DNA from: Serratia sp. (in: enterobacteria) | GTDB lineage: Bacteria > Pseudomonadota > Gammaproteobacteria > Enterobacterales > Enterobacteriaceae | Assembly: GCF_051654945.1 (NCBI RefSeq) | Contig: NZ_JBOFZA010000076.1 | Coordinates: forward strand, 19,279-49,278 | Direction of reading: 5' to 3' | DNA: 30,000 bases | Shown: positions 1,822 to 30,000 of the stretch, in pieces | How the letters are laid out: every line of letters starts with the position of its first letter | How positions within the stretch are numbered: the first letter of the stretch is position 1 | Made by a program: the position numbers and the translations under genes | Notes under the pieces: model-generated | Databases searched by the model: none | Told to the model about the DNA's origin: nothing | What the model saw: the letters and a program-made list of their open reading frames with translations, nothing else

Positions 1822-4800
1822 CTAGGGGTGGGAAAATGCCTCAATGGCCGCATTCAGCCCCAGAAGCAGCTGTTCCAGGTCGCGCATGCCCTGTTCAATG
1901 ATGGCCTCATGCTGCTGTTTCGCCAGCGCATTTTCCAGCGCTTCACTAAGCTGATGTAATGACGTTGCCCCCAGCAATTGAGCCGTTCCATTGATGCGAT
2001 GTAAATGGCGTTGCAGAGTTGGCCAGTCCTGTAATTGGTGTGCCTGCCTGGCCACCAGCAGATCTTTGTCATTTTCCTGCCGGGCTTGCTCGAGCATCTG
2101 GCGCATCAGGGCGTTATCCCCCAGGCTAAGCGCCTGTAGCGTGGCCATATCGACAAACTCGCTGAGGGAGACGGCCGGCGAAGGTGCAGCAACACCTTGC
2201 AGCGCCGCTTCCAGCTGCGGTAAATCTACCGGTTTAAACAGGCAAAGGTTCATTCCCATCGCCAGGCAGCGTTCTTTCTCTTCAGCCTGGGCGTTAGCGG
2301 TTAGCCCCCAGATAATGATCTCCTGGTTGAATTCACGTACCCGGCAAGTCAGCGTCATGCCGTCCATATTCGGCATATTGAGATCGGTGATCAGCAAATC
2401 ATACGGATTGGCCTCGATCATGGCCAGGGCCTCCACCCCATCAATAGCCTCATCGACCCGATAACCCAGCGTATCCAACTGACGACGGAGCAGTAAGCGG
2501 TTGGTGGGGTGATCGTCCGCAATCACAATCCTCAGCGCTTTTGAGCCACTGACGGGCGCTTTGGGCGTGAATGAAACGGCGGTAACCTTATCCAGATCCG
2601 CAACTGCGGTGATGAGCGTTACCGTCATGGTCGTTCCCCTGCCCGGCTGGCTTGCCATCTCTATGCTACCGGCCATACGTTCCACCAACTCACGGCAAAT
2701 CGTCAGACCCAATCCCGATCCGGTCTGTTGTTTACCGCCTTCGGTCTGGCTAAAGGGCTTAAACAGGTGTTGTTGCTCCTGTGGGCCAATCCCTGCCCCG
2801 CTATCTTTCACGCTCAGCGTCAGGCGAGTTTGATCGGTGCCCTGCGAGTGCGTTTGCGCGATCACCTCAACCCCGCCCTCAACGGTAAATTTGATGGCGT
2901 TACTGAGCAGATTGGCAAGTATCTGCTTCACCGCCTGCGGATCGAGCCACAGCGCCTGCGTTGTTCCGAGGTGGTAGTCTACCGACAGCCGCAGATTTTT
3001 CAGCGTGGCCACCCCCTCAAAACTGCTGACCGTCGTGGCTAACAGCGAAGCCAGATCAACCCATTCTGGTGTCAGCTCAAAGTTGCCAGACTCAATTTTC
3101 TCCATATCCAGCACATCGCCAATCAGGCCAAGCAATGACTGCGCGGTGGCATAGGCAAGTTGGATCGACTCTTTCTCCTCTGCCGGGCTTTGGCTATGGG
3201 TGGTAAGCAATTCCAGGAACCCCATAATGGCACTCACCGGCGTACGAATTTCATGGCTCATGCTGGCCAGGAAGGTGCTTTTGGCCCGATTGGCATCAAT
3301 GGCCTTGTCTTTCTCCACCTGCAACGCCTGCATCAATTGTCTGGATTCGGTAATGTCCTGCCAGCCGCAAATCAGCGTGGCTGTTGTGTTAGCTGGCAGT
3401 TGGCACAGCGTTAACCAGTGCAAAATCAGGCGTTCTTCCGTGCCATTATTCAGCACCAATTGATGAGGGATAACCTGGTTGGCTTGCAGCCCTTGCTGGA
3501 TTACGGGCTGCACCGCAGCGAAAATGTCTGCCAGCGGATGGCGACGGTCAAACAACGAGTAATGCATCGCGGCATAAAGCTCGGGACTGAAGAAGTCACC
3601 AAAAGCGCTGTTGTAGCTTTCGACCTCTCCTTGCAAAGAGATAACGTACACCGGCACCGGGATCGAGTTGAATAAGGTCTGGCGGAAACCAAGCTGATAC
3701 TCAAGCGCCGCCTGTGCCTTTTTGCTTTTACGGATGGCCCGCAGCAGATAAGCCCCCCATAGCAAGCTGCTGACCACCAGCAACGTTGCCAAAATGATCA
3801 CCAGATAAAAAGGCCGGTTATAGAGATTCCAGGTGTCAATTTTCACTTCAGGGGTTTTTACCCACTTGCCAGCCAAATTCAACAGCTCTTTGGGAGGAAT
3901 ATCGTCCAGCGCCTTATTCATAATGCTTTGTAATTCTGGCGAACTGCGTGGCACGGCAAAAGAGATCTGGGCAGTGCGTTCATCAGGAATACGCGTGTAG
4001 GTCATCCGATCGGGATAATAGTGATCGATGATATAGCGCGCGGCGAGCTGCGTAGACACCACTGCGTCGATTTCCCCCTGATCCAGCATGCTCAGCGCCG
4101 CACTGGTGTTCTCTACCTCGATCCATTTCACGCCCGGATATTTGATTTTCAGCTTTTCCAATAACGTATGGTAGGCCGGAATAGCGACTTTCATGCCCGG
4201 CTGCAGCTCTATGCCCTGCTTGGCAGCAACGCGGGTAACCATCACAAAAGGGGTGGCTAAATACGGATGGGTAAAGGCAATTTGCTCTTCCCGATCGGGG
4301 CTGTAGGTAGCCGAGGGCAGGATATCCCAATCGCCCTTACGCATAATGCCGACCATCTGTTCATTGGAATTGGCGATCACTGGCTCAAAGGTCAAGCCGG
4401 TTTGTAGCTGGATCAGGTTAAGGATATCGCCAACCAGCCCACGCATTTCCTGATTTTCATCCACCATGCTGAATGGGGCGTAATAGGGATTAACCAACAC
4501 ACGCAATTTAGGATGCTTTTGCAGCCAACGAGTTTCCTGTGTGGTAAAAGTCAGCCTTTTGGATAAAAAGGCCAGATTGCCCATATCAATCCACGATTGG
4601 ACAATCTGGCTGTGTAAAGGCTCGGTCAACGATCTGATAAAGCTATCTACGATGTTGACTAACTGTCGCTGGTTAGCGAGCGCAATAAATACGTTACCGC
4701 TCTGCGGCTCTCGCCAGAATTTCACCATATCCAGCGTCTGATAGTAATCGCGGGCGATAATAAAACTGGTGGTGAGGTTATTGCCGAAAAAATAGTCGCT

Positions 4801-5418
4801 CTGTTGGGCGGCAACCGAGGCCAACGCCTGATTTTCATGGGCAAAAGAAACGATGCTGGCGTTGGGAAATGACTGTTTGATAAATGATTCAGACGGAAAA
4901 CCTTGCGTGATAGCCACCTTGATATTGCCGCTAATATCGTGAAACGGCTTCATCACTTCGGCCTGCCGCGTCACCAGGGTTGGATACCCTCGCACCAGCG
5001 GCAAGCTGGTAATAAAGGGAGCCTCTAGCTGGCTTACCCCGGATTGGGCGCTGAGAACGAGATCGACGCTGCCCGCTTGTAATGCAGCCAATGCCTGCGA
5101 TTCATCGACATAAAGTTTGACGATCACATTGGTATTCAGAGCCTTTCCCAGCAGCGCAAGATAATCCGCATTCATTCCGCGATAACGACCAGTGGCGCTA
5201 TTTATACTTAACGGTGGGGATTCAAGGCCATAAACGGCGACGGTAAGAGTGTGCTTTTGCGCCAGCCATGCCAGATCGCCGTAGCTGAGAGCGATAGTTG
5301 AGGGCGTGACTATGTGATTACTCGTCAGCACCAACGTTATCGGCTCGTTGCTCACCGCCCGTGCAGGCAGCATCATCCATAGCAAAACCAGCCAAAACAC
5401 CACCACTCGCCTTAACAT
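1822..5418 (-). CDS. evgS: Hybrid sensor histidine kinase of the EvgS/BvgS type (1198 aa from the ATG at 5418)
   Basis: Domain order read from the translation: signal peptide; two periplasmic solute-binding-like domains; TM segment; HisKA (SHEIRTP); HATPase (GSGLGL); receiver (DLLITDLNMPNMDG); C-terminal HPt (HRINGTA). The length matches E. coli EvgS (1197 aa). I prefer the ATG at 5418 (MLRRVVVFWL...) to the ORF-track start at 5454, which would overlap evgA by 32 nt. Confidence 0.9.
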   Translation of the reverse strand: MLRRVVVFWLVLLWMMLPARAVSNEPITLVLTSNHIVTPSTIALSYGDLAWLAQKHTLTVAVYGLESPPLSINSATGRYRGMNADYLALLGKALNTNVIVKLYVDESQALAALQAGSVDLVLSAQSGVSQLEAPFITSLPLVRGYPTLVTRQAEVMKPFHDISGNIKVAITQGFPSESFIKQSFPNASIVSFAHENQALASVAAQQSDYFFGNNLTTSFIIARDYYQTLDMVKFWREPQSGNVFIALANQRQLVNIVDSFIRSLTEPLHSQIVQSWIDMGNLAFLSKRLTFTTQETRWLQKHPKLRVLVNPYYAPFSMVDENQEMRGLVGDILNLIQLQTGLTFEPVIANSNEQMVGIMRKGDWDILPSATYSPDREEQIAFTHPYLATPFVMVTRVAAKQGIELQPGMKVAIPAYHTLLEKLKIKYPGVKWIEVENTSAALSMLDQGEIDAVVSTQLAARYIIDHYYPDRMTYTRIPDERTAQISFAVPRSSPELQSIMNKALDDIPPKELLNLAGKWVKTPEVKIDTWNLYNRPFYLVIILATLLVVSSLLWGAYLLRAIRKSKKAQAALEYQLGFRQTLFNSIPVPVYVISLQGEVESYNSAFGDFFSPELYAAMHYSLFDRRHPLADIFAAVQPVIQQGLQANQVIPHQLVLNNGTEERLILHWLTLCQLPANTTATLICGWQDITESRQLMQALQVEKDKAIDANRAKSTFLASMSHEIRTPVSAIMGFLELLTTHSQSPAEEKESIQLAYATAQSLLGLIGDVLDMEKIESGNFELTPEWVDLASLLATTVSSFEGVATLKNLRLSVDYHLGTTQALWLDPQAVKQILANLLSNAIKFTVEGGVEVIAQTHSQGTDQTRLTLSVKDSGAGIGPQEQQHLFKPFSQTEGGKQQTGSGLGLTICRELVERMAGSIEMASQPGRGTTMTVTLITAVADLDKVTAVSFTPKAPVSGSKALRIVIADDHPTNRLLLRRQLDTLGYRVDEAIDGVEALAMIEANPYDLLITDLNMPNMDGMTLTCRVREFNQEIIIWGLTANAQAEEKERCLAMGMNLCLFKPVDLPQLEAALQGVAAPSPAVSLSEFVDMATLQALSLGDNALMRQMLEQARQENDKDLLVARQAHQLQDWPTLQRHLHRINGTAQLLGATSLHQLSEALENALAKQQHEAIIEQGMRDLEQLLLGLNAAIEAFSHP

Positions 5419-5422
5419 GCGC

Positions 5423-6055
5423 TCACCCAATTTTATTACGGTTGGCAAAGGCAAACAGGTCTGCCAACGAGCTACAACCGAGCTTCTCCATTAAACGGCT
5501 TTTATAGGTACTGACCGTTTTATTGCTGATAAACATCGCCGCCGCGATCTGCATATTATCCGCACCGCCAAGGATGGCGCGCATCACCTTGATCTCCTGG
5601 CTGGAGAGCGAAGCCAACATTTCCTGTTCCGAAGAAAGGCTGCCGACGAAACCGTTCAGTGAGAAAGGAAAATAGCTGTAGCCATTTTGGGCGGCATGCA
5701 CCGCAGCAATGATATTGGTCATGCCCTCTTTTTTACTGATAAAGGCATTGGCCCCGGCATCTGCACTGCGCTTGCCGTAGAACAGATCGTTTTTGGCTGA
5801 GACTACGATAATAATTTGGCTGAACTGCTGCTTTCTGAGCTTTTCAACCACCTCAATGCCGCTCATGATGGGAATATCCACGTCGACAATCACTACGTCC
5901 GGCTGCTGCTGCGCTACCTGTAACAGCGCTTCGGCCCCGTCCCCCGCCTCGCCAATAACCTCAATCCCTTCACTTTCCAGCAGGTTCCTGATCGCCATAC
6001 GGGCCAGAGGATGATCGTCAACAATTACAGCACTCAAAAATTTGGCTTCACCCAT
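5423..6055 (-). CDS. evgA: Response regulator, NarL/LuxR-type HTH output (210 aa)
   Basis: Receiver domain (VIVDDHPLARMAIRNLL..., DVVIVDVDIP) plus a C-terminal LuxR-type HTH (LSSQEIKVMRAILGGADNMQIAAAMFISNKTVSTYKSRLMEKLG). It lies immediately upstream of evgS and divergent from the emrK-type gene, as in E. coli. Confidence 0.9.
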   Translation of the reverse strand: MGEAKFLSAVIVDDHPLARMAIRNLLESEGIEVIGEAGDGAEALLQVAQQQPDVVIVDVDIPIMSGIEVVEKLRKQQFSQIIIVVSAKNDLFYGKRSADAGANAFISKKEGMTNIIAAVHAAQNGYSYFPFSLNGFVGSLSSEQEMLASLSSQEIKVMRAILGGADNMQIAAAMFISNKTVSTYKSRLMEKLGCSSLADLFAFANRNKIG

Positions 6056-6306: not shown

Positions 6307-6524
6307 GGCGGCCTGCAACAACTTCCGATGTCTCTGCTGTGTTACGGCCAGGCCCTGCATTATCATTATTACGAACTTTCAGCATTGCTGCTCGCCGATC
6401 CGGACGTTTCAAGCTGAAAATGATGACCAAGCCATTCTATTAATCAATTACGCTCTGCGCTTATTGCCACTGGCAGCGTGATGGCTTGCTATTGCTCCTA
6501 AACAGACCAGCAAGGGTTTTGCCA

Positions 6525-7694
6525 ATGCCACAATTACCCCCCTCAGACAGTAACCAGGTGAAAACACCCTTAGAAAAAAGAAAGCATTGGCTGATCGTTT
6601 TTCTAGTGGTGATTGTTATTACAGCCATGGCCAGTGCCGCCTGGTGGTATTTCAATTCGCGCAATGTGCAAAGCACCGACGATGCCTATGTCATGGGCAA
6701 TCAGGTCGCGATTTCTTCGCAGGTGAATGGCAGCGTGGTCAGCGTGAATTACACCAATACCGATTTAGTCCACCAAGGGGATGTGTTGGTCAATTTAGAT
6801 GATACCGATGCCAACCTCAGCTTTAAAAAAGCCAAAAATAATCTGGCGGAAACGGTGAGAAAAACCAAGCAGATCTATATCGCCGACGAACAATATAGCG
6901 CCAATATTGCCCAGGCTAAAATCGCGTACCAACAGGCACAGGCCGATTTTAAACGTCGCACCCAGCTGATGGGCGCGGGGGCTTTTTCAAAAGAAGATCT
7001 GCAACATGCGCGCAATGCCGTTAGCAGCAGCAAGGCAGCGCTGGACGTCGCCATTCAGGAATATCGCGGTAATCGTGTTCTGATCCAGAACTCCACGCTT
7101 GAACAGCAGCCGGCAATCCTGTTGGCAGTAGAACAACTGCGTGAAGCCTGGCTGGCGCTACAACGTACCAAAATTCGCAGCCCGGTGACCGGCTATGTCG
7201 CGCAGCGCAATGTGCAGGTCGGTGAAACGCTGAGTGCAGGCCAGGCCTTATTATCTATCGTCCCCGCCGATCAGCTGTGGATTGACGCCAACTTCAAGGA
7301 AACCCAGCTCAGTGGTGTCCGCATTGGGCAGAAGGTGAGCGTGGTGAGCGATCTGTATGGCAGTGATGTGGTCTTCGACGGCGTGATTGAAGGGATCAAT
7401 ATGGGCACCGGCGGCGCGTTTTCAGTACTACCCGCGCAGAATGCCACCGGCAACTGGATCAAAGTGGTACAACGCCTTCCGGTGCGTATCACCCTGGATG
7501 CCGAGCAAGTCAAAGCGTACCCGCTGCGGATTGGCTTATCCACCACGGTGACCCTGCGCGAAAACAACACCAACGGGCCTGCGCTGTCTACCACCCAACG
7601 CCAGACTCCGGCTTACCAAAGCCAGGCGCTGGTGCTCGATACCGCGATTATCGACGGGGAAATCCTCAGCATCATCAAAGCCAATGCGATGTGA
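6525..7694 (+). CDS. emrK: HlyD-family membrane fusion protein of an EmrAB/EmrKY-type efflux pump (389 aa from the ATG at 6525)
   Basis: Colinear by eye with E. coli EmrK/EmrA (STDDAYV.GN, LDDTDA...KAKNNLA, IRSPVTGY.AQR.VQVGE, NFKETQL..VRIGQ, GINMGTG.AFS.LPAQNATGNWIK.VQR.PV). The ORF-track start at 6486 is a TTG. The ATG at 6525 has AAGGG about 8 nt upstream and gives the E. coli-like length. Confidence 0.85.
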   Translation: MPQLPPSDSNQVKTPLEKRKHWLIVFLVVIVITAMASAAWWYFNSRNVQSTDDAYVMGNQVAISSQVNGSVVSVNYTNTDLVHQGDVLVNLDDTDANLSFKKAKNNLAETVRKTKQIYIADEQYSANIAQAKIAYQQAQADFKRRTQLMGAGAFSKEDLQHARNAVSSSKAALDVAIQEYRGNRVLIQNSTLEQQPAILLAVEQLREAWLALQRTKIRSPVTGYVAQRNVQVGETLSAGQALLSIVPADQLWIDANFKETQLSGVRIGQKVSVVSDLYGSDVVFDGVIEGINMGTGGAFSVLPAQNATGNWIKVVQRLPVRITLDAEQVKAYPLRIGLSTTVTLRENNTNGPALSTTQRQTPAYQSQALVLDTAIIDGEILSIIKANAM

Positions 7695-7697
7695 TCT

Positions 7698-9233
7698 ATG
7701 AGCAACAACCGCGCACTGCTGCCGCTCAAAGGCTGGTCATTGATCCTGGTGACGCTCTCGCTATCGATGGCGACCTTTATGCAGATGTTGGACTCCACCA
7801 TTTCCAATGTCGCGATCCCAACCATTTCCGGCTTCCTGGGTGCCTCGACGGACGAAGGAACCTGGGTGATCACCTCGTTTGGCGTCGCCAATGCGATCGC
7901 CATCCCGATGACCGGGCGTCTGGCACAACGCTTCGGCGAGTGCCGGCTGTTTTTAGCTTCGGTGGCATTGTTTGCCCTGGCGTCGCTGTGCTGCGGGCTC
8001 TCCACCAATCTCGATATGCTGATCTTTTTCCGCGTCATTCAAGGATTGGTTGCAGGCCCGCTGATCCCGCTCTCGCAAAGTCTGTTGCTGCGTAACTACC
8101 CGCCGGAGAAGCGTAATATCGCGTTGGCGCTCTGGTCAATGACGGTGATTATCGCCCCGATATTTGGCCCGATTATTGGCGGCTATATTTGCGATAACTA
8201 TGACTGGGGCTGGATATTTTTAATCAACGTGCCGTTCGGCATCGTGGTGGTTGCCATTACCGCGTGGAAGCTGAAAGGAAGAGAAACGCCTACCGAGCCG
8301 GTGAAAATCAATCTGTTTGCATTAAGCCTGCTGGTGCTCGGTGTAGGTTGCCTGCAAATCATGTTGGATAAGGGCAAAGACCTCGACTGGTTTAACTCCA
8401 CCACCGTGATTGTGCTGGCCGTGATTGCCGTGGTGGCGCTGATTTTGCTGATTATCTGGGAAGCCACCGACGATAATCCGATCATCGATCTGAGCCTGTT
8501 CCGTTCGCGTAACTTCAGCATCGGCATCCTGTGCATCAGTTGCGCGTATCTGATTTATGCCGGAGCGATTGTGTTGATGCCGCAGCTGCTACAGATTGTC
8601 TTTGGCTACACCTCGGTGTGGGCGGGTCTGGCCTATGCCCCCATCGGGCTGATGCCACTGCTGATCGCCCCATTGATTGGCCGCTACGGCGATCGTGTCG
8701 ATATGCGGGTGCTGGTGACCTTCAGCTTTATCGTGTATGCCGGTTGCTACTACTGGCGAGCGATGACGTTTAACCCGGCGATTGGCTTTAGTGCCGTGGT
8801 GCTGCCGCAGTTGATGCAAGGCTTCGCCGTGGCCTGCTTCTTCCTGCCGCTGACCACCATTTCGTTGTCAGGACTGGCACCAGAAAAATTTGCCGCAGCC
8901 ACCAGCTTAAGCAACTTTTTCCGTACGTTATCTGGCTCGATCGGCACGTCACTCACCATGACTTTGTGGAGCCACCGGGAGTCGTTTCACCATGCGCAGT
9001 TGACGCAGTCGGTGACGCAATTCAACCCGGCCGCGATCAAGCTGGATCGGGAGTTGCAACATCTGGGGTTCGATCAACAACAAGCAGCGACCTATATCAA
9101 CGATCAGATTACCCAGCAGAGCCTGCTGATGTCGGCCAATGATATTTTCTATCTCTCAGCGGGGGTGTTCCTGATGCTGACCCTGCTGGTATGGTTCGCC
9201 AAGCCGCCGTTTAATACGGCCAAGGCGGGTTGA
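7698..9233 (+). CDS. emrY: MFS (DHA2, 14-TMS) multidrug efflux permease of the EmrB/EmrY type (511 aa)
   Basis: The ATG lies 3 nt after the emrK stop. The hydrophobic translation is EmrB-like (MATFMQMLDSTISNVAIPTISG.LG, ...GRLAQRFGE...). The length matches EmrB/EmrY (512 aa). Confidence 0.88.
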   Translation: MSNNRALLPLKGWSLILVTLSLSMATFMQMLDSTISNVAIPTISGFLGASTDEGTWVITSFGVANAIAIPMTGRLAQRFGECRLFLASVALFALASLCCGLSTNLDMLIFFRVIQGLVAGPLIPLSQSLLLRNYPPEKRNIALALWSMTVIIAPIFGPIIGGYICDNYDWGWIFLINVPFGIVVVAITAWKLKGRETPTEPVKINLFALSLLVLGVGCLQIMLDKGKDLDWFNSTTVIVLAVIAVVALILLIIWEATDDNPIIDLSLFRSRNFSIGILCISCAYLIYAGAIVLMPQLLQIVFGYTSVWAGLAYAPIGLMPLLIAPLIGRYGDRVDMRVLVTFSFIVYAGCYYWRAMTFNPAIGFSAVVLPQLMQGFAVACFFLPLTTISLSGLAPEKFAAATSLSNFFRTLSGSIGTSLTMTLWSHRESFHHAQLTQSVTQFNPAAIKLDRELQHLGFDQQQAATYINDQITQQSLLMSANDIFYLSAGVFLMLTLLVWFAKPPFNTAKAG

Positions 9234-24380: not shown

Positions 24381-24670
24381 GCAGCGAAAATCCGGTCAAC
24401 GTAGACGTCAAGCTGGGCATCAACAAGTTTCATGTTAATGAGGGCCATCCGCACATCATTCTGGTGGATAACCCCGATATGGGGGAGTTCCGCAAGCTGG
24501 TGCTGGCCTGCCCTGCCGGGCTGTATAAACAAGACAGCGCGGGCAATATCCATTTCGATTCCGCCGGCTGTCTGGAGTGTGGCACCTGCCGCGTGCTGTG
24601 CGGCGATACCATTCTGGAGCAGTGGGAATATCCTCTGGGGACGTTTGGCGTCGAGTTCCGCTACGGGTGA
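24377..24670 (+). CDS. ydiT: FixX-like ferredoxin (97 aa)
   Basis: ATGA start/stop overlap with ydiS. Cys-rich motif C.ECGTCRV.C. Confidence 0.9.
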   Translation: MSSENPVNVDVKLGINKFHVNEGHPHIILVDNPDMGEFRKLVLACPAGLYKQDSAGNIHFDSAGCLECGTCRVLCGDTILEQWEYPLGTFGVEFRYG

Positions 24671-24673
24671 TCG

Positions 24674-24849
24674 CCCCTCACCCCAGCCCTCTCCCACAGG
24701 GAGAGGGAGCTGGTACGGTGATAGAGGCAGTTACTGCGATCTACCTGCAGTCCTCCGTAAAACGACTCGGTAGCCCAGGTCGATTTCGGCAACCCATAGC
24801 AAACTCGATCGGTCCCCTCTCCCTTTGGGAGAGGGTTAGGGTGAGGGGC
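24674..24849. repeat. BoxC/REP-like hairpin-ended element, copy 3 (176 bp, MITE-like)
   Basis: The left end is CCCCTCACCCCAGCCCTCTCCCACAGGGAGAGGGAGC. The right end is GATCGGTCCCCTCTCCCTTTGGGAGAGGGTTAGGGTGAGGGG, in inverted orientation. It fills the ydiT-fadK spacer. Confidence 0.85.
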
Positions 24850-24909
24850 AATTTTCACCGGACCAGAACATTTCAACATCCCCCAGAAATAATGAATAGA
24901 GATAAACCA

Positions 24910-26550
24910 ATGAGTGTCACGATAAAACTCGATCCTGAACGCCGGGCCAAATACCGCCAGCAAGGCTTCTGGGGCGATGCCTCCCTGGCCGATTACTGGC
25001 ATCAAACCAGGCAGGCCATGCCGGAAAAGATTGCCGTGATCGACAATCGGGGAACCTCCTACACCTATGCTGCCCTCGATCACGCGGCAAGTTGCCTGGC
25101 TGCGTGGTTAATTTCCCGTGGTATACAACCGGGCGACCGCGTCGCCTTTCAGCTCCCCGGCTGGTGCGAATTTACCGTGATCTACCTGGCCTGCCTGAAA
25201 GCCGGTGCCGTTTCCGTTCCGCTGCTCCCCTCTTGGCGAGAGTCAGAGCTGGTCTGGGTGCTGAACAAATGCCAGGCCAAGGTGCTGTTCGCACCGACCT
25301 CATTCAGGAATAGCCGCCCGATCGACCTTATTTTACCGCTGCGCGATCAACTGCCGGGTCTGCTGGAGGTCATTGCCGTCGATAAACTGTCGCCCGCCAC
25401 CAATACGTTGGCCCTTAGCCAGTTGCTGCGCGACACTCCACCGCTAACCACTCCGGTCAGCACGCAGGGCGATGAACTGGCCGCCGTGCTGTTCACCTCC
25501 GGTACCGAGGGCAAACCCAAAGGCGTGATGCTGACGCACAACAATATCCTGGCCAGCGAGCGTGCCTACTGCGCACGGCTCAATCTGACCTGGCTCGATA
25601 CCTTCCTGATGCCTGCTCCCTTGGGGCATGCCACCGGTTTTTTGCACGGCGTGACGGCCCCCTTTCTGATTGGCGCACGCAGCGTACTGCTGGATATATT
25701 TAATCCACTTGATTGCCTTGCCCTGCTGCAACAAGAGCGCTGTACTTGCGTGCTCGGAGCAACCCCCTTTGTCTATGATCTGTTATGCACCCTGCAACAG
25801 CAGCCGCACGACATTTCATCGCTGCGCTTCTTCCTGTGCGGTGGCACCACCATCCCGAAAAAAATTGCCCGGGATTGCCTGCAAATGGGCATCAAACTGC
25901 TCAGCGTTTATGGCTCGACGGAAAGCTCGCCCCACGCGGTGGTCAACCTGGACGATCCCCTTTCCCGCGTGCTCAACAGCGACGGTTTTGCCGCACCTGG
26001 GGTAGAGATCAAAGTGGTGGATGAAAATCGTGACCAACTCCCCAACGGCGAAGAAGGCGAAGAAGCCTCGCGTGGCCCCAACGTATTTATGGGCTATCTG
26101 GATGAACCCGAGCTGAGCGCCCGTGCGCTGGATGAGGATGGCTGGTATTACAGCGGCGATCTGTGCCGGATGGATGCTGATGGCTATATCAAAATTACCG
26201 GGCGCAAAAAGGATATTATCGTGCGCGGTGGCGAGAATATCAGCAGCCGCGAAGTGGAAGATATTCTGATGCAACACCCGCGCATCCATGATGCCGCAAT
26301 TGTCGCCATGCCGGATGAGCGATTAGGGGAAAGATCCTGCGCCTACGTGGTGCTTAAGGCCGCATACGGCTCACTCACCCTAAAGGAGATCATTGCTTTC
26401 TTTGGCCGCAAACGGGTCGCCAAATACAAATACCCCGAACACCTGGTGGTGGTGGACAGCCTGCCGCGTAATGCCTCGGGCAAGATACAAAAATTCCTGT
26501 TACGCCAGGATATCATCCAGCGTCTCGGTGAAGAGGTGCTGTCTCATTGA
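24910..26550 (+). CDS. fadK: Short/medium-chain acyl-CoA synthetase (546 aa from the ATG at 24910)
   Basis: ...YRQQGFWGDASLADYWHQT...; AMP-binding motif LFTSGTEGKPKGVMLTHNN; ...GEEASRGPNVFMGY..., ITGRKKDIIVRGGENISSREVE, and a C-terminal SGKIQKFLLR. Colinear with E. coli FadK (YdiD). An alternative in-frame ATG lies at 24892. The 657-aa ORF-track version reads through the repeat element and is rejected. Confidence 0.88.
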   Translation: MSVTIKLDPERRAKYRQQGFWGDASLADYWHQTRQAMPEKIAVIDNRGTSYTYAALDHAASCLAAWLISRGIQPGDRVAFQLPGWCEFTVIYLACLKAGAVSVPLLPSWRESELVWVLNKCQAKVLFAPTSFRNSRPIDLILPLRDQLPGLLEVIAVDKLSPATNTLALSQLLRDTPPLTTPVSTQGDELAAVLFTSGTEGKPKGVMLTHNNILASERAYCARLNLTWLDTFLMPAPLGHATGFLHGVTAPFLIGARSVLLDIFNPLDCLALLQQERCTCVLGATPFVYDLLCTLQQQPHDISSLRFFLCGGTTIPKKIARDCLQMGIKLLSVYGSTESSPHAVVNLDDPLSRVLNSDGFAAPGVEIKVVDENRDQLPNGEEGEEASRGPNVFMGYLDEPELSARALDEDGWYYSGDLCRMDADGYIKITGRKKDIIVRGGENISSREVEDILMQHPRIHDAAIVAMPDERLGERSCAYVVLKAAYGSLTLKEIIAFFGRKRVAKYKYPEHLVVVDSLPRNASGKIQKFLLRQDIIQRLGEEVLSH

Positions 26551-26561
26551 TTATCCAGATG

Positions 26562-26579
26562 GGCGCAGCAGGCTGCGCC
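26562..26579. terminator. GC hairpin between convergent fadK and the secreted-protein gene
   Basis: GGCGCAGC (26562-26569) and GCTGCGCC (26572-26579) are perfect complements; effectively a 7-bp stem with a 4-nt loop. No flanking T-run on either strand. Confidence 0.35.
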
Positions 26580-26597
26580 TCAACGGCTTGACCGATC

Positions 26598-27188
26598 TTA
26601 CTTTTTAGCGGGTTCGGCATGTATTTCTAGCAAATCGGTATAGGTCACCACCACGCTCTGATTCACCTTCAGATCTTTCAGGCGAGCCTGGATCGCAGGA
26701 TCTTCAACGGCAATGACTTTCTGACGCCCCGCAGGCCCTTCAAAGGTCACCTGGTGCTTGTTAAGATCAATATGCGTGATCTTCAAGGTCACATTGACCT
26801 GATGTATCGCGTTGACGTTGGGATTAGGGTTGTTCTTGGTCGCGTTGCTTTCTTCTTTATAGCTGGTGATCGTCGGGGCCGCCTTACTCAGATCGGTATC
26901 AAGCTTAACAATACGTGAGCGAACCACCGTGGCCTGGATCGTATCCCCCGCCTTTAGGTTGGTTAAATCCTTTTCCTGATCGGTCAGTTTAAAACTGACG
27001 TTATGCCCTTCTGCACCAGCCAAAACCACGACGCGGTTTTGTTGGTCGACCGAGACCACTTTCGCGGCGAACTGATCCGTTTGCACCTCACCAGCCAAAG
27101 GAACAATGTCTGCGTAAGCTGAAGTGATGCTGATGGCAAGAAGGGAAAATGCAGTGGAGGCTTTAATCAACGAACGGATAACTTTCAT
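26598..27188 (-). CDS. Secreted/periplasmic protein of unknown function with an internal two-fold duplication (196 aa)
   Basis: Sec-type signal peptide MKVIRSLIKASTAFSLLAISITSAYA/DI. Two similar beta-rich modules: (a) VVSVDQQNRVVVLAGAEGHNVSFKL....LTNLKAGDTIQATV; (b) ITHIDLNKHQVTFEGPAGRQKVIAV....LKDLKVNQSVVVTY. AAGGA RBS. I cannot name the family. Confidence 0.75.
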   Translation of the reverse strand: MKVIRSLIKASTAFSLLAISITSAYADIVPLAGEVQTDQFAAKVVSVDQQNRVVVLAGAEGHNVSFKLTDQEKDLTNLKAGDTIQATVVRSRIVKLDTDLSKAAPTITSYKEESNATKNNPNPNVNAIHQVNVTLKITHIDLNKHQVTFEGPAGRQKVIAVEDPAIQARLKDLKVNQSVVVTYTDLLEIHAEPAKK

Positions 27189-27364
27189 TATACAACGATC
27201 CTTAATGATAAAGAGTCGGTCGGATAGAAATGCATATTTCAGGTAGCCATGGATAACTAGCCAACGTCATGATGCATTTAACCCACATGGCATTGAATCA
27301 CCACGCTAACCATACCACAGTTGTCATATTCAAAACCTTTTCCACGGGCTGAAACGAGCCAAAA

Positions 27365-27377
27365 GGCACGTCATGCC
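27365..27377 (-). terminator. Weak hairpin plus T-run downstream of the tRNA-like gene
   Basis: The minus strand reads GGCA-TGACG-TGCC followed by TTTTGG, about 65 nt beyond the tRNA 3' end. The stem is only 4 bp. Confidence 0.25.
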
Positions 27378-27440
27378 CATTAGTCACAAAGCCGGTAACG
27401 GCAAATAAAATTGATAGGTTCCGACAGGAAGAATGAAAGG

Positions 27441-27513
27441 CTCTGGCAACAGGGCTCGAACCTGTGTCCAGTCGGTCCGAGAGCCGACTGCTCTACCACT
27501 GAGCTATACCAGA
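27441..27513 (-). tRNA. tRNA-like gene with a canonical body but an 8-nt anticodon loop (CUCUCGGA). No encoded CCA. Isotype undetermined; the 3' half of the loop is Arg-like.
   Basis: Manual fold of the minus strand:
- Acceptor stem TCTGGTA/TGCCAGA (7 bp, one G-U)
- U8 A9
- D stem GCTC/GAGC, loop AGTGGTA
- A26
- Anticodon stem GTCGG/CCGAC, loop CTCTCGGA (8 nt)
- Variable loop TGGAC
- T stem ACAGG/CCTGT, loop TTCGAGC
- Discriminator G, followed by CCT
Conserved U8, A14, G18G19, A21, T54-T55-C56 and A58 are all present. Confidence 0.7.
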
Positions 27514-27522
27514 GTTAGGGCT

Positions 27523-27550
27523 ATTATCTACAGCCTGCCAGCACGGTCAA
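27523..27550 (-). promoter_or_regulatory. Near-consensus sigma70 promoter for the tRNA-like gene
   Basis: The minus strand has TTGACC (plus 27545-27550), a 16-nt spacer, then GATAAT (plus 27523-27528). The -10 element ends 9 nt before tRNA position 1. The -35 hexamer overlaps the TGA stop (27547-27549) of the upstream 442-aa ORF. Confidence 0.6.
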
Positions 27551-28875
27551 GCAGGCTGACTGCCTTTACCGGAAAAATAGCCTGCCTTGCGGAGTATCAG
27601 GGCGATCTCGGGCCGCGCCACCACCACGCCATGAACCAGCTCCGGCGTTGGGACAAACGGCACCGCCTGCCGATTGTGACGTGGGCTGATCCAGCCCTTT
27701 TTATAAGGATCGACAGCAAACTGCGCACAGATCCGCTGCACATCGGCTTTGGTACAGCTTGCTGCGCCCGAAAACACCTCCCACGGAAACGGCAGATGCG
27801 CCCACACCTGCGTGTCCGGCTCCGGGCCACCGCCCGCCTGATAGTGCCAGGCAGCAACGTCCCCAGCCATCAGGCGTAGCACTTTGCCCAGGCACATCTG
27901 TTCAACCATCTGCTCCATACCCAGCACTTCGGCTAGCGCAAGCCACCCTTGTCTGGCACTGTTCCAGGCTCCGGCCAAGGCATTCCAGGTGGAGGAGTCA
28001 TCACCACGTTTTACAACCATAGTGCGGCGATTGAACGTATTACGTTCCCAGATCAGCTTCAGTAAACCGGCCAACTCATTGAGCTGCGCCAGATAGTGCG
28101 TAAACAGGCTCAGCTTTTGCCGATCGTCGAGATGCTGGACGATCTCACGGTCCGGCATGATATGGGCAATGGCATACCACCCCGCCGATGTTGGCTGCTG
28201 CTGTACCCGAGCCAGCAGCATCTCGGCAATCTGGTCAAAGGCTCGATCCTGCGCCTGGTTGGTAAATACGCTGCGGCGGTTCATACGAGCGGAAAGCCAG
28301 GCAATAAAACAGGCAACATCTGGCGTGGAGGAAAAATCCTCATAGCGGATCAGAGTCGTCAGCCCGGATTTTGCCACCCGGGATGCCTGATACTTTTGCG
28401 TTTCCAACTGGTACGTCGCGAGTTTGCTCTCAAAGCGCTGCAAAAAGCGGAACAGCTTGTTATAGCGCCTTTTGGAGATCTCCATTCCCGCCTGCTGCCG
28501 CTCTGCGCGGCTCAAACGATCGGCGATAAAATGATTACTGCCCGGTATTTTCTGGATCTCCGCTGACAGTTGCTCAATCAACTGCCTGACCTGCTCAATA
28601 TCGCTGCAATCAACGGCGTCCAGCGCTGGCGCACAGACAAACAGCTCCCGCGCTTTCGCCACCTGTTTTTGTGGGGCTATGGGTTGCTGGAAATCCTGCA
28701 TCATCGAGGTCATCTGAACCAGCCCCGACTTCAGCGAACGAGCCGACGCCTGGCGCAATGGGGCTGCTTCAGCCACAGTCAGGGAATCTCCCAACTGCGT
28801 GAGGATCAATTCAGCCACATCTTCCGGGCGCAACCGGGTTTGCAGGGAGGAGAACAGCCGGGCAAGGTTATCCAT
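27547..28875 (-). CDS. Hypothetical protein, 442 aa, no family recognised
   Basis: Long uninterrupted ORF with ordinary-looking composition. Predicted soluble: no signal peptide or TM segment is visible. I see no catalytic motif. ATG at 28875 with only a weak SD. The opposite-strand ORFs here are short. Confidence 0.7.
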   Translation of the reverse strand: MDNLARLFSSLQTRLRPEDVAELILTQLGDSLTVAEAAPLRQASARSLKSGLVQMTSMMQDFQQPIAPQKQVAKARELFVCAPALDAVDCSDIEQVRQLIEQLSAEIQKIPGSNHFIADRLSRAERQQAGMEISKRRYNKLFRFLQRFESKLATYQLETQKYQASRVAKSGLTTLIRYEDFSSTPDVACFIAWLSARMNRRSVFTNQAQDRAFDQIAEMLLARVQQQPTSAGWYAIAHIMPDREIVQHLDDRQKLSLFTHYLAQLNELAGLLKLIWERNTFNRRTMVVKRGDDSSTWNALAGAWNSARQGWLALAEVLGMEQMVEQMCLGKVLRLMAGDVAAWHYQAGGGPEPDTQVWAHLPFPWEVFSGAASCTKADVQRICAQFAVDPYKKGWISPRHNRQAVPFVPTPELVHGVVVARPEIALILRKAGYFSGKGSQPA

Positions 28876-29038
28876 CAGGGCTAATCCATTAAAAGGTTAA
28901 AGTCTTATAAGGTCGGCTGACGCGGGTATCAGCCAGTGCATCAAGCAAATGACATACCGTTGACTATATTGATAGAGGTCAATTGATCAACCAGTTTAAT
29001 GGTGAAACGCTCCCCTCTGCCAAGTTAAACTCATCGCA

Positions 29039-29617
29039 ATGGCCCTGCGCTATTCCTACCTGCGTTCACCGTGGAGCAAGAAATTGTTTAAATGCCTGAT
29101 AAACCGGCTAACGCTGGTCGCTGTTCTCGCCCTGCCCGCCATGGCCCATGCGGCCCCTGACGTACAGGTGGGATTTTCGCCGGAAGGCTCGGCACGGGAA
29201 CTGGTGCTGAAGGTCATTGGCAGCGCACATAAATCCATCCAGATGATTGGCTATTCCTTCCAGGCGCCAGATATCACTCAGGCGCTGGTAGCGGCACATC
29301 AGCGGGGGGTGGATGTGCGCGTAGTGGTCGATAAACGCCGCAATCAGGGCAAGGTCAGCCAGGCGGCGATTAACTATGCGGCGACTCACGGCGTACAGAT
29401 GCGTATTGACGGGCATTATCATATCCAGCACGACAAAACGATTATCGTCGATGGCCAGACGGTAGAAACCGGCTCGTTTAACTATGCTCCCTCGGCAGAG
29501 ACGCAAAACAGTGAAAACGTGGTAGTTCTACGCCATATGCCCGACGTTGCCAGGCAGTTCATCATGCACTGGCAAAGCCGCTGGGATTTGGGCATTCCTT
29601 ACCCAGTGACGCTTTAG
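29039..29617 (+). CDS. nuc: Nuc-like periplasmic endonuclease, phospholipase D superfamily with a single HKD motif (192 aa; 177 aa if it starts at TTG 29084)
   Basis: Single HxK(x)4D motif followed by GSxN (HDKTIIVDGQTVETGSFN). Signal peptide ...LTLVAVLALPAMAHA/AP. GGAG (29073-29076) lies 7 nt before the in-frame TTG at 29084, while the ATG at 29039 has no SD, so the start is uncertain. Confidence 0.8.
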   Translation: MALRYSYLRSPWSKKLFKCLINRLTLVAVLALPAMAHAAPDVQVGFSPEGSARELVLKVIGSAHKSIQMIGYSFQAPDITQALVAAHQRGVDVRVVVDKRRNQGKVSQAAINYAATHGVQMRIDGHYHIQHDKTIIVDGQTVETGSFNYAPSAETQNSENVVVLRHMPDVARQFIMHWQSRWDLGIPYPVTL

Positions 29618-29702
29618 GCCACAAAACAGCCTGATTGATGAATTCCACTCATAGTGCCTATCCTGTCACGCGTGATTATCCCAGCGCCCAATCCTGCTAC
29701 CG

Positions 29703-30000
29703 TCAGATATTCTGATCGAAGAAGCTATCAAGCCCGGCCATTGCCTGATCGACATAGCGAGGAACCCAGTAGGTTTCGATATGAGTGGCCCCATCGATAA
29801 GGATAAGCCGCTTGTTGTTCGTACCGGTGGCTTTCTTGAAGGCACTCTCTGTCATGTAAAGCGAGTCCGCCTTGCTGCCAGCCATCATCAGCAGCGGTTG
29901 ATTGATGAGATCCATATTGCTTTGCGCATCAAAGCTCATCAAATCGAGCAGGCTGCTCAGGGTATAGCGGAAAGTGGAATTTGGGTGTGCATGGCTTTTG
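29703..30000 (-). CDS. Alpha/beta-fold hydrolase, C-terminal part (open to the right edge of the window)
   Basis: The frame stays open upstream of the ORF-track start through position 30000. The C-terminal LLMMAGSKAD...LILIDGATHIE pattern is typical of the acid/His end of an alpha/beta hydrolase catalytic triad. Confidence 0.6.
   Translation of the reverse strand, partial: KSHAHPNSTFRYTLSSLLDLMSFDAQSNMDLINQPLLMMAGSKADSLYMTESAFKKATGTNNKRLILIDGATHIETYWVPRYVDQAMAGLDSFFDQNI

Follow-up and report, generated by a model that had tools for sequence, protein, structure and literature searches.

A conserved family of uncharacterised proteins encoded beside dedicated tRNA genes with variable anticodon loops

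Here we describe an open reading frame (ORF) and the transfer RNA (tRNA) gene next to it, both found in a 30,000-nt stretch of DNA from Serratia sp. (assembly GCF_051654945.1, contig NZ_JBOFZA010000076.1, positions 19,279 to 49,278; hereafter the window). The ORF starts with ATG and encodes 442 amino acids, and the co-oriented tRNA gene begins 34 nt past its stop codon (Table 1). A previous examination of the letters alone (hereafter the sequence-only reading) had delimited this ORF with exactly the same coordinates and had placed both genes on one strand, as we find. When compared with its Serratia homologues, the ORF is under strong purifying selection, with a ratio of nonsynonymous to synonymous substitution rates (dN/dS) of 0.08-0.14 at synonymous divergences (dS) of 0.32-0.80. 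A dN/dS of about 0.1 and the presence of conserved homologues identify the ORF as a genuine gene. The encoded protein is basic, with a calculated isoelectric point of 9.2, which is also the median of its family. Its basic patch, placed by the sequence-only reading near residues 135-153, corresponds to the helix SKRRYNKLFRFLQRFESKL at residues 134-152, which lies within a 36-residue helix (135-170) in the AlphaFold2 model, and the C-terminal third is indeed rich in tryptophan, as seven of the ten Trp residues fall at positions 297-395.

Table 1. Features of the ORF-tRNA cassette in the window
Feature	Position	Strand	Basis
Minimal conserved cassette, from 25 nt 5' of the ATG to 9 nt 3' of the tRNA	27432..28900	minus	Comparison with Serratia sp. 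2723 (L005)
Cassette tRNA, perfect cloverleaf (21/21 pairs)	27441..27513	minus	ARAGORN, Rfam, structural parse, minimum free energy fold
Spacer of 33 nt between stop codon and tRNA 5' end	27514..27546	minus	100% identical to the spacer of locus L001
Sigma-70-like tRNA promoter, TTGACC-16 nt-GATAAT	27523..27550	minus	10/12 consensus matches
442-aa protein, basic, all-helical, novel fold, conserved uncharacterised family	27547..28875	minus	ORF call, homologues, dN/dS, AlphaFold2
Candidate ORF promoter, TTGATC-16 nt-TATAGT	28963..28990	minus	Consensus match only

The RNA gene is the only tRNA gene that ARAGORN reports in the entire window (27439-27513, minus strand), and the program leaves its type unassigned and gives it a four-base anticodon, ctcg. 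Rfam matches it to the tRNA family RF00005 at 27441-27513 with 57.9 bits, against a gathering score of 29, and the covariance model of the linked tRNA family described below gives 87.8 bits. The minimum free energy fold is also a cloverleaf. No transfer-messenger RNA (tmRNA) was called by ARAGORN, and Rfam returned tRNA only. Along with the cloverleaf, the RF00005 tertiary nucleotides (U8, A14, G18-G19, G53-U54-U55-C56, and A58) are retained. The anticodon arm of the window tRNA is unusual, with the stem GUCGG/CCGAC closing a loop of 8 nt, CUCUCGGA, in place of the canonical 7-nt loop that has U33 before the anticodon and a purine at position 37. This loop may be read either as an extra C followed by the anticodon UCG (Arg) or as the quadruplet anticodon CUCG. 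The discriminator G73 is followed by CC-U rather than by an encoded CCA, and canonical identity elements that match the anticodon, together with the 3' CCA that enterobacterial tRNA genes encode, were not found. The tRNA gene has a promoter of its own, and the ORF stop codon TGA (27549-27547) lies inside its -35 hexamer TTGACC, an overlap already pointed out in the sequence-only reading. The promoter motif ..TTGACC..GTAGATAATAGCCCTAAC is kept in the Serratia loci L001 and L006-L011.

We collected 88 homologue loci from genomes and metagenomes, the metagenome part being the best 80 of 222 matches. In the first three loci, which come from a 93%-identical relative, Chitinimonas arctica, and Andreprevotia lacus, a co-oriented tRNA gene follows the stop codon after 34-44 nt. 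Downstream sequence of 130 nt or more was available for 81 loci, and 80 of these contain one to four co-oriented tRNA genes that start between -160 and +200 of the stop codon, although the loci are not phylogenetically independent and these counts overstate the number of independent observations. The median offset of the tRNA from the stop codon is +13 in the linked loci and the spacer ranges from -10 to +45 nt across the family, whereas the tRNA density elsewhere in the same loci is 0.06 per kb. A covariance model built from the linked tRNAs (R1) finds two tRNA-like genes directly after the ORF in the sole exception (L085), and it also recovers tRNAs missed by ARAGORN in two viral-contig loci (L099 and L101). 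R1 gives 75-92 bits for linked tRNAs, compared with 44-58 bits for the ordinary tRNAs of one viral-contig array. The linkage extends over Serratia, Myxococcota, Verrucomicrobiota, Armatimonadota, Bacteroidota, Streptomyces plasmids, and viral contigs of IMG/VR that carry tRNA arrays. In the linear plasmids of Streptomyces and a Hymenobacter plasmid, where the same pairing occurs, gaps in the RefSeq locus tags fit the tRNAs we found. The genetic linkage of protein and tRNA is obligate, and its presence in 80 of 81 loci effectively excludes chance adjacency. The sequence-only reading had suggested that the two genes are inherited as a unit and had named the tRNA-like gene as a possible conserved partner; the neighbourhood survey strongly supports both.

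The extent of the unit was given by Serratia sp. 2723 (L005), which shares with the window only the interval listed as the minimal conserved cassette in Table 1 and has it between fimbrial and ars genes. Since nothing beyond the ORF, the tRNA, and their immediate flanks is shared, we take the unit to be a 1.47-kb ORF-tRNA cassette. No other protein-coding neighbour is conserved across the homologue loci examined. A divergent gene of phospholipase D (PLD) type, similar to Nuc, does lie at 29039-29617 (PF13091, E = 1e-25), just as the sequence-only reading had it. This gene is found in only some Serratia loci (L001 and L006-L012) and is absent from L004, L005, and all non-Serratia loci, and thus we rejected it as a functional partner. 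The family is apparently single-copy per contig. No terminal repeats bounding the minimal cassette were found, and no repeat of the tRNA was detected within 26300-29900 of the window. An integrase-type insertion at a host tRNA was also rejected, because the cassette contains no recombinase domain detectable with Pfam, the ORF is located on the 5' side of the tRNA, and this tRNA is of the cassette-specific kind.

The arrangement of the two genes varies among lineages. The most distant homologues, which come from IMG/VR contigs and have 36-40% identity, show the opposite order, with the tRNAs some 50-120 nt 5' of the ORF. The loci L095-L103 (IMG/VR, homologues with 36-44% identity) have tRNAs just 5' of the ORF with loops of up to 9 nt, all of them beginning with CUC(U), as in CUCUUGGGA and CUCUGCUAA. 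Elsewhere the tRNA gene reaches back into the ORF, whose stop codon then coincides with the invariant U8-A9-G10 of the tRNA (offset -9). This overlap was observed in several unrelated lineages (L013, L016, L021, L048, and L078/L079, and also L089-L091). At such overlaps, cleavage by RNase P at the tRNA 5' end would strip the stop codon from the mRNA, and therefore the amount of protein would be coupled to tRNA processing. On a viral contig of 335 kb (L107, 4497-9660), the homologue lies within an array of at least 19 tRNA genes, together with an HNH endonuclease, two radical-SAM proteins, and an RNase T-like exonuclease, which might be functionally tied to tRNA metabolism.

The linked tRNAs form a family of their own, characterised by a conserved chassis with compensatory changes, an invariant CUC rule at the loop start, a fast turnover of anticodons, and a canonical signature at positions 36 and 37. 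The common chassis consists of the D arm UAGCUCAGUGGUAGAGC, an anticodon stem that ends in ..CGG/CCG.., the variable loop UGGAC, and the T arm GCAGGUUCGAGCCCUGC. In an alignment of 108 distinct linked tRNAs 99.6% of cells are paired, and compensatory changes were found at 18 of the 21 pairs. Because these changes occur in all four helices, selection acts on the RNA. The acceptor stem, on the other hand, is free in sequence and co-varies. Among the 112 unique linked tRNAs, the discriminator is G in 35, A in 32, U in 32, and C in 13, with no relation to the anticodon, and CCA is encoded in only 7. Thus, the parts of a tRNA that are normally read by synthetases are free in this family.

The anticodon loop combines a fixed start with a remainder that varies, though non-randomly. 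It starts with CUC in 107 and with CAC in 5 of the 112 unique tRNAs, and two to six rapidly changing bases follow. Four of these tRNAs have a loop of 6 nt, 58 of 7 nt, and 50 of 8 nt; loops of 9 nt occur in the distant clades. The first base of the anticodon assigned by ARAGORN is C in 132 of 138 linked tRNAs, compared with 9 of 30 background tRNAs from the same loci, and none of these 30 has an 8-nt loop. The anticodons of the 7-nt loops include CUU (19), CUG (18), CGU, CUC, and CGG, among others. Decoding tRNAs normally follow a rule for positions 36 and 37, by which G36 is followed by G37, and U, C, or A36 by A37. This rule holds in 48 of the 58 loops of 7 nt. In the 8-nt loops it holds in 39 of 50 cases when the loop is read past the extra C, but in only 9 of 50 in the other register. 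The 8-nt loop is therefore a canonical 34-38 segment placed after C-U-C or, equivalently, a quadruplet C-N-N-N. Read past the extra C, these loops give the anticodons UUG, UUC, UGG, UUU, UCC, UCG, and others, mostly of the U34 type. They are also more common in AT-rich loci, as they were found in 27 of 43 cases at a GC content of third codon positions (GC3) below 0.45 but in 6 of 26 at a GC3 above 0.75 (p = 0.006, not corrected for phylogeny). Cassettes with more than one tRNA usually hold differing anticodons.

A reciprocal scan of IMG/VR with the chassis returned, on contigs lacking the ORF, almost only tRNAs with the canonical loop CUCAUAA (Met/Ile2-type) and a few Lys(CUU) tRNAs, whereas 8-nt loops were found only on ORF-bearing contigs. 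For this reason the chassis looks derived from CAU-type tRNAs, and the aberrant loops appear specific to the pairing. Many viral contigs (L113-L164, IMG/VR) carry a tRNA(CAU) that has the loop CUCAUAA and shares its D arm, anticodon stem (..CGG/CCG..), and T arm with the cassette tRNAs, and no linked ORF. From their similarity to the cassette tRNAs, these genes are probably the source stock of the chassis.

In the Serratia cassettes the tRNA body of about 69 nt has no substitution at dS 0.32-0.80, whereas one to four of the four variable loop bases differ over the same divergence, giving the loops CUCG-GA, CUUA-GA, CUGG-GA, CUCC-UU, and CUCC-AU. Two Serratia pairs separated by a dS of about 0.32 have different bases at each of the four loop positions, an unlikely outcome under neutrality (about 0.005 per pair, the pairs being non-independent). 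The pattern recurs in pairwise comparisons of cassettes from all lineages, where both loops and tRNA bodies are identical in all 21 pairs with a protein identity above 95%. At 90-95% identity, loops are identical in 2 of 15 pairs and bodies in 12 of 15; at 80-90%, loops are identical in 5 of 32 and bodies in 22 of 32. The anticodon is the fast-evolving portion of an otherwise frozen RNA.

The protein half of the cassette belongs to a large family without annotation. A search covering 5.8 billion proteins found 1,391 homologues at E<=1e-3, all annotated as hypothetical and none with a Pfam domain. The word orphan, used for this ORF in the sequence-only reading, is thus correct as regards annotation, but the family itself is large and conserved. 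The closest homologues (87-93% identity) are from Serratia and other assemblies, and the next tier, at about 60% identity, is from Chitinimonas, Andreprevotia, Myxococcus, Corallococcus, Prosthecobacter, Leeia, Parvibaculum, and Gemmataceae. An exhaustive profile search gave 566 clusters at 50% identity, and no domain fusion was found by a profile search of their representatives. Long or distant members, when looked up by cluster, were named only as hypothetical proteins. A plasmid search yielded seven matches, all annotated as hypothetical proteins, while no match was obtained in complete genomes of E. coli by megablast or in the INPHARED phages by tblastn. The family alignment contains the strongly conserved motifs SRRRYNKLFR, GDDSSTWNxxAGAWNxAR, GKVxRLMAADVAxWH, and PTPELVHGV. 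In broad-family members with 29-46% identity to the window protein, the conserved polar residues are R14, R136, R143, Y193, R201, D214, D293, S294, N298, N305, R308, K331, D339, H344, C374, and H415. Their conservation suggests that the cluster of D214, D293, S294, N298, N305, R308, K331, and D339 is a candidate active site.

The failure to place this protein in any family by eye was matched by the database searches. Pfam, NCBIfam, PHROGs, and PADLOC gave nothing significant for the window protein, and Pfam likewise gave nothing significant for 10, and then 60, distant family members. The best hit in profile searches against PDB sequences was HutP (E = 0.4, over the C-terminal 70 residues), which we treated as noise. 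The AlphaFold2 model, based on a 53-sequence alignment, was predicted with high scores (predicted local distance difference test 91, predicted template modelling score 0.88) and is all-helical except for a small C-terminal hairpin, in agreement with the mostly helical protein expected in the sequence-only reading. Foldseek found no relative of this model in the PDB (best E 0.4, template modelling (TM) score below 0.2); entries with the isoprenoid-synthase fold among these non-significant matches were not relied on. The only structural relatives came from a viral structure library, namely uncharacterised proteins of Edafosvirus (E = 7e-16) and Yasminevirus (E = 3e-14), both with a TM score of about 0.67. 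Both viruses belong to the Klosneuvirinae, a group noted for its extensive translation machinery.

Several domains known from proteins that act on or with tRNAs were likewise not found. An aminoacyl-tRNA synthetase catalytic domain, whether class I (Rossmann, HIGH, KMSKS) or class II, was absent by Pfam, NCBIfam, PDB profiles, and Foldseek. The PP-loop (SGGxDS) ATP pyrophosphatase domain had no Pfam match and its motif does not occur in the family alignment. No match to a HEPN domain (Rx4-6H) or an ABC-type ATPase was found by Pfam or PADLOC, and the alignment has no P-loop; the conserved R334 and H344 are separated by 10 residues. TROVE and vWA domains gave no Pfam match and no structural match in the PDB, and SmpB gave no Pfam match for the window protein.

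We consider it very probable that the protein and the tRNA form a functional partnership. As to its nature, we tentatively favour the reading that the protein is a constructive factor directed at the anticodon loop of the chassis tRNA, because homologues are held in viral tRNA arrays, the structural relatives are proteins of giant viruses, and the protein is highly conserved. On this reading the ORF would be the protein half of a horizontally mobile two-component module, and the other half would be one or more dedicated chassis tRNAs. The protein would bind the L-shaped tRNA through three features, namely its conserved elbow, the upper anticodon stem, which is rich in G-C (..CGG/CCG..), and the unvarying 5' part of the loop, C32-U33-C(-U). 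It would then act at the wobble position or directly beside it, either modifying a base or carrying out another maturation or licensing step. These invariant elements are those that a protein partner would read. The remainder of the loop would be free to change, so that the same chassis could be re-targeted to other codons, and a generic tRNA with a swappable anticodon could be made functional after horizontal transfer. The tRNA would decode, and that of the window would read either the Arg codons CGA/CGG, by UCG after the extra C, or the quadruplet CGAG. Signs of such decoding are the differing anticodons within a cassette, the 36/37 rule, and the GC3 trend. From these data we infer physical binding between protein and tRNA, an action at the anticodon loop, the chemistry of this action, and a constructive rather than toxic role.

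The logic of this action would be akin to that of TilS. Lysidine formed by TilS at C34 of tRNA-Ile2(CAU) changes both the codon and the amino-acid identity of this tRNA. The loop start C32-U33-C34 occurs in 107 of 112 cassette tRNAs and the cassette chassis resembles CAU-type (Met/Ile2) tRNAs, a likeness of logic only and not of family membership. TilS is a PP-loop ATPase that is unlinked to its tRNA, whereas the cassette protein has no PP-loop, its tRNA has a variable anticodon, and an extra C is frequent in the loop.

Several points weigh against a constructive factor that serves decoding. Some members of the tRNA family, those with 6- or 9-nt loops, five with A33, and some 15-20% with a pyrimidine at position 37, cannot be ordinary decoders. 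A canonical-looking 34-38 segment would be expected equally of tRNA mimics acting as decoys or pseudo-substrates, and the exchange of Arg-, Pro-, Gly-, and ochre-type anticodons among members of a single genus is more suggestive of diversification driven by conflict than of codon supply. Aminoacylation is not assured, because neither the acceptor stem nor the discriminator is constrained and most of the genes do not encode CCA. Furthermore, no fold or motif for binding a nucleotide or cofactor can be recognised in the protein, so that the case for an enzymatic role is made only by its conserved polar residues.

A bolder form of the idea, which we regard as doubtful, is that the cassette is a self-contained orthogonal translation device, in which an enzyme of novel fold licenses the chassis tRNA by modifying or charging it and recognises it by the C-U-C(-U) loop start. 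If so, the anticodon would be swappable and expandable to four bases, and chosen triplet or quadruplet codons could be reprogrammed. Such a device could serve recoding, deliberate mistranslation, or bypass of tRNA-targeting immunity while moving between bacteria, plasmids, and viral genomes.

The main alternative, unlikely in our judgement, is that the cassette encodes a toxin and its tRNA antidote in an abortive-infection, addiction, or host-shutoff system. The protein might, for example, be a novel all-helical anticodon nuclease that cuts next to U33, and the linked tRNA might be an uncleavable inhibitory pseudo-substrate or a resistant replacement that owes its resistance to the C after U33. 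A strict two-gene unit that is mobile and sporadic, and occurs on chromosomes, plasmids, and viral contigs, agrees with this model, as does the strong promoter of the tRNA's own in Serratia. The conserved loop 5' half, anticodon stem, and elbow are what binding of a pseudo-substrate needs, and the acceptor end, CCA, and discriminator are free; the tolerance of 6-9-nt loops and A33 also agrees, and the 6- and 9-nt loops, the A33 variants, and the free acceptor end are better explained than by the constructive factor. In some pairs the loop outpaces synonymous sites, and anticodon switching within a genus is better accounted for. Lys, Gln, and Glu tRNAs are the classic targets of anticodon nucleases, and the commonest cassette anticodons are of these types, a prominence that the toxin model likewise explains better. 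On the other hand, no family or motif of the HEPN, PIN, MazF, colicin, or BECR type is matched by the protein, which for a toxin would be large and unusually well conserved from one phylum to another. The differing anticodons per cassette, the 36/37 rule, and the GC3 trend fit decoding better, the large viral tRNA arrays and giant-virus structural relatives suggest a constructive role, and the window is not a defence island but ordinary chromosome, with a two-component system, efflux pumps, arsB, fixCX, and an acyl-CoA synthetase gene. The RNA-antitoxin module considered in the sequence-only reading finds no defining feature of known modules here. The RNA consists of one to four full cloverleaves rather than the short tandem repeats of type III toxin-antitoxin systems, and no match to a ToxN/AbiQ-type endoribonuclease fold was obtained with PADLOC, Pfam, or Foldseek. 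The RNA-guided mechanism that it also raised is unlikely because only two to six RNA bases vary, and we rejected the tRNA as a guide for this reason.

It is improbable, in our view, that the two genes constitute a natural orthogonal pair in which the protein fixes the amino-acid identity of the chassis, by charging it or recruiting a charger, regardless of the anticodon, for recoding or mistranslation. One body does carry many anticodons, including Ser- and Leu-type ones on a short variable arm and the stop-reading CUA and UUA, and the 8-nt loops have the architecture of a quadruplet decoder (U33, C-N-N-N, purine 37). There is also a precedent, since tRNAProX and ProRSx of Streptomyces and Kitasatospora are a dedicated mistranslation machinery (PMC10404621) that resembles the cassette in having one body with swapped anticodons, an adjoining gene for a dedicated protein, and a sporadic, accessory distribution. 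However, ProRSx is an isoform of prolyl-tRNA synthetase, whereas the cassette protein has neither a synthetase fold nor a known domain nor an ATP-binding motif. The usual handles for charging, the discriminator and acceptor stem, are unconstrained and CCA is rarely encoded. The cassette also differs in that its loop must begin with CUC and has 6-9 nt, and in that its family spans many phyla and viral contigs. The possibility that the ORF needs its own tRNA as a suppressor or frameshifter was ruled out, as the ORFs are intact in frame zero everywhere.

We give equally little credence to a counter-defence cassette of independent parts, in which a nuclease-resistant substitute tRNA would travel with a separate inhibitor or repair protein that never touches it, and the CUC rule would stem from the specificity of an enemy nuclease and not from any recognition by the protein encoded beside the tRNA. 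Phage tRNAs with altered anticodon loops do escape tRNA-targeting defences, homologues of the ORF lie within tRNA arrays of viral contigs, and the quick turnover of tRNA identity is what an arms race predicts. Such tRNAs, and the systems of PrrC and RloC, share with the cassette unusual loops on mobile or viral elements, the prominence of Lys, Gln, and Glu, and signs of an arms race. However, PrrC and RloC are HEPN/ABC-type proteins dissimilar to the cassette ORF, and we know of no protein partner of the altered-loop phage tRNAs. Independent functions would also leave unexplained the near-100% linkage, the near-zero spacer, the U8-A9-G10 stop overlap, and the constancy of the chassis along with the protein across phyla.

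Least credible of all is an explanation at the DNA level, either an enzyme of mobility or homing, such as a recombinase or endonuclease, that acts on the tRNA gene (with the stem as inverted repeats and the loop as spacer or immunity polymorphism) or an adjacency due simply to insertion beside tRNA genes: the different contexts of the 1.47-kb cassette among related Serratia, a 62-nt imperfect direct repeat around one S. fonticola block (see below), the variable-length loop segment right after a constant motif and between CCGG arms, and the known occurrence of homing endonucleases in tRNA arrays (PMC8421152) would fit it, but the protein has no nuclease, recombinase, or transposase signature, the linked tRNAs are a distinct family that travels with the protein rather than host tRNAs, the compensatory changes in four helices show selection on the RNA, and the cassette is apparently single-copy per contig with no terminal repeats at its minimal form.

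Other known systems, like those above, resemble the cassette in logic only. As in PylS-pylT and SmpB-ssrA (tmRNA), a protein gene adjoins a co-oriented gene for a dedicated tRNA or tRNA-like RNA and the two can be transferred as a unit. Neither pair matches the cassette in fold or RNA type, since PylS belongs to the class II synthetases, SmpB is a small beta-barrel partner of tmRNA, and the cassette RNA is called by ARAGORN as tRNA and not as tmRNA. Ro60 (Rsr) with Y RNA or YrlA, which has a tRNA-like module (PMC7824862), likewise combines a largely helical RNA-binding protein with a tRNA-like RNA encoded beside it, and this pair is also found in some jumbo phages. However, Ro60 has TROVE and vWA domains that are detectable with Pfam, and YrlA lacks a true anticodon arm, whereas the cassette RNA is a complete cloverleaf. 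An 8-nt anticodon loop is known from yeast mitochondrial tRNA-Thr1, which decodes triplets (PMC3113583), and from +1 frameshift suppressors of the SufB2 type, which show quadruplet reading or +1 frameshifting; in both, the loop sits on a canonical L-shape as in the cassette tRNAs. These are isolated tRNAs without a linked novel-fold protein, while in the cassettes, of which there are hundreds, the extra base is always C after U33.

We found no published description of the family or of the pair in the full-text literature, locus tags and accessions included. The mechanism of the cassette may in the end belong with tRNA modification or with tRNA-targeting toxicity, in a form not seen before. Should the pairing prove functional, the cassettes would make up a class of protein-tRNA systems not described before, whose more than 1,300 proteins are distributed from enterobacteria to myxobacteria, Streptomyces plasmids, and large viral contigs. 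Its protein fold has no solved relative, and its tRNA design rule, a constant chassis with a CUC start, loops of 6-9 nt, and quick anticodon change, is without precedent. The system bears on why mobile elements and viruses carry tRNAs, on the natural change of tRNA identity and codon size, and on the fights between cells and viruses over the tRNA pool. It could also yield parts for genetic-code engineering, namely an anticodon-agnostic chassis together with the factor cognate to it, and naturally occurring tRNAs whose loops are built like those of quadruplet decoders, in an entire module of only 1.5 kb.

Some further features of the locus were observed. The candidate ORF promoter (Table 1) is 88 nt 5' of the ATG, beyond the minimal conserved cassette. 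The 25 nt 5' of the ATG that travel with the cassette (28876-28900, minus strand) include a two-codon mini-ORF, ATG GAT TAG, which is a copy of the gene's first two codons and lies 5 nt before the real ATG. No clear Shine-Dalgarno sequence is visible directly 5' of the 442-aa ORF.

On the other side, a 196-aa ORF (26598-27188, minus strand) with a signal-peptide-like N-terminus and no Pfam match lies directly 3' of the tRNA. It falls in a stretch of about 890 bp (26538-27423) that is missing from the S. fonticola loci L006, L007, and L009 and is thus a strain-variable insertion adjoining the cassette. In S. fonticola L006, a 62-nt imperfect direct repeat with 82% identity (5152-5213 and 7498-7559) surrounds the Nuc gene, the ORF, and the tRNA. 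Its right-hand copy is formed by the 3' end of the gene for the AMP-binding protein (acyl-CoA synthetase) and corresponds to 26476-26537 of the window, where the repeat is not present in that form. The repeats on both sides suggest that this 2.3-kb block of Nuc, ORF, and tRNA arrived by a target-duplicating insertion.

Farther from the cassette, two 38-nt inverted repeats, 89% complementary, lie between fixX and the acyl-CoA synthetase gene (24670-24707 and 24815-24852). Each holds a GGGAGAGGG/CCCTCTCCC palindrome and resembles intergenic repeats of the repetitive extragenic palindromic (REP) type, and their presence accounts for a spurious long upstream extension of a 657-aa ORF call. Near the start of the window, a 1,210-aa hybrid sensor kinase with two periplasmic SBP_bac_3 domains, HisKA, HATPase, receiver, and Hpt domains is followed by a LuxR-type response regulator (1822-6055, minus strand). 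An EmrAB-like efflux pair (6486-9233) is divergent from these two genes, in a layout like that of EvgSA-emrKY that is unrelated to the cassette.

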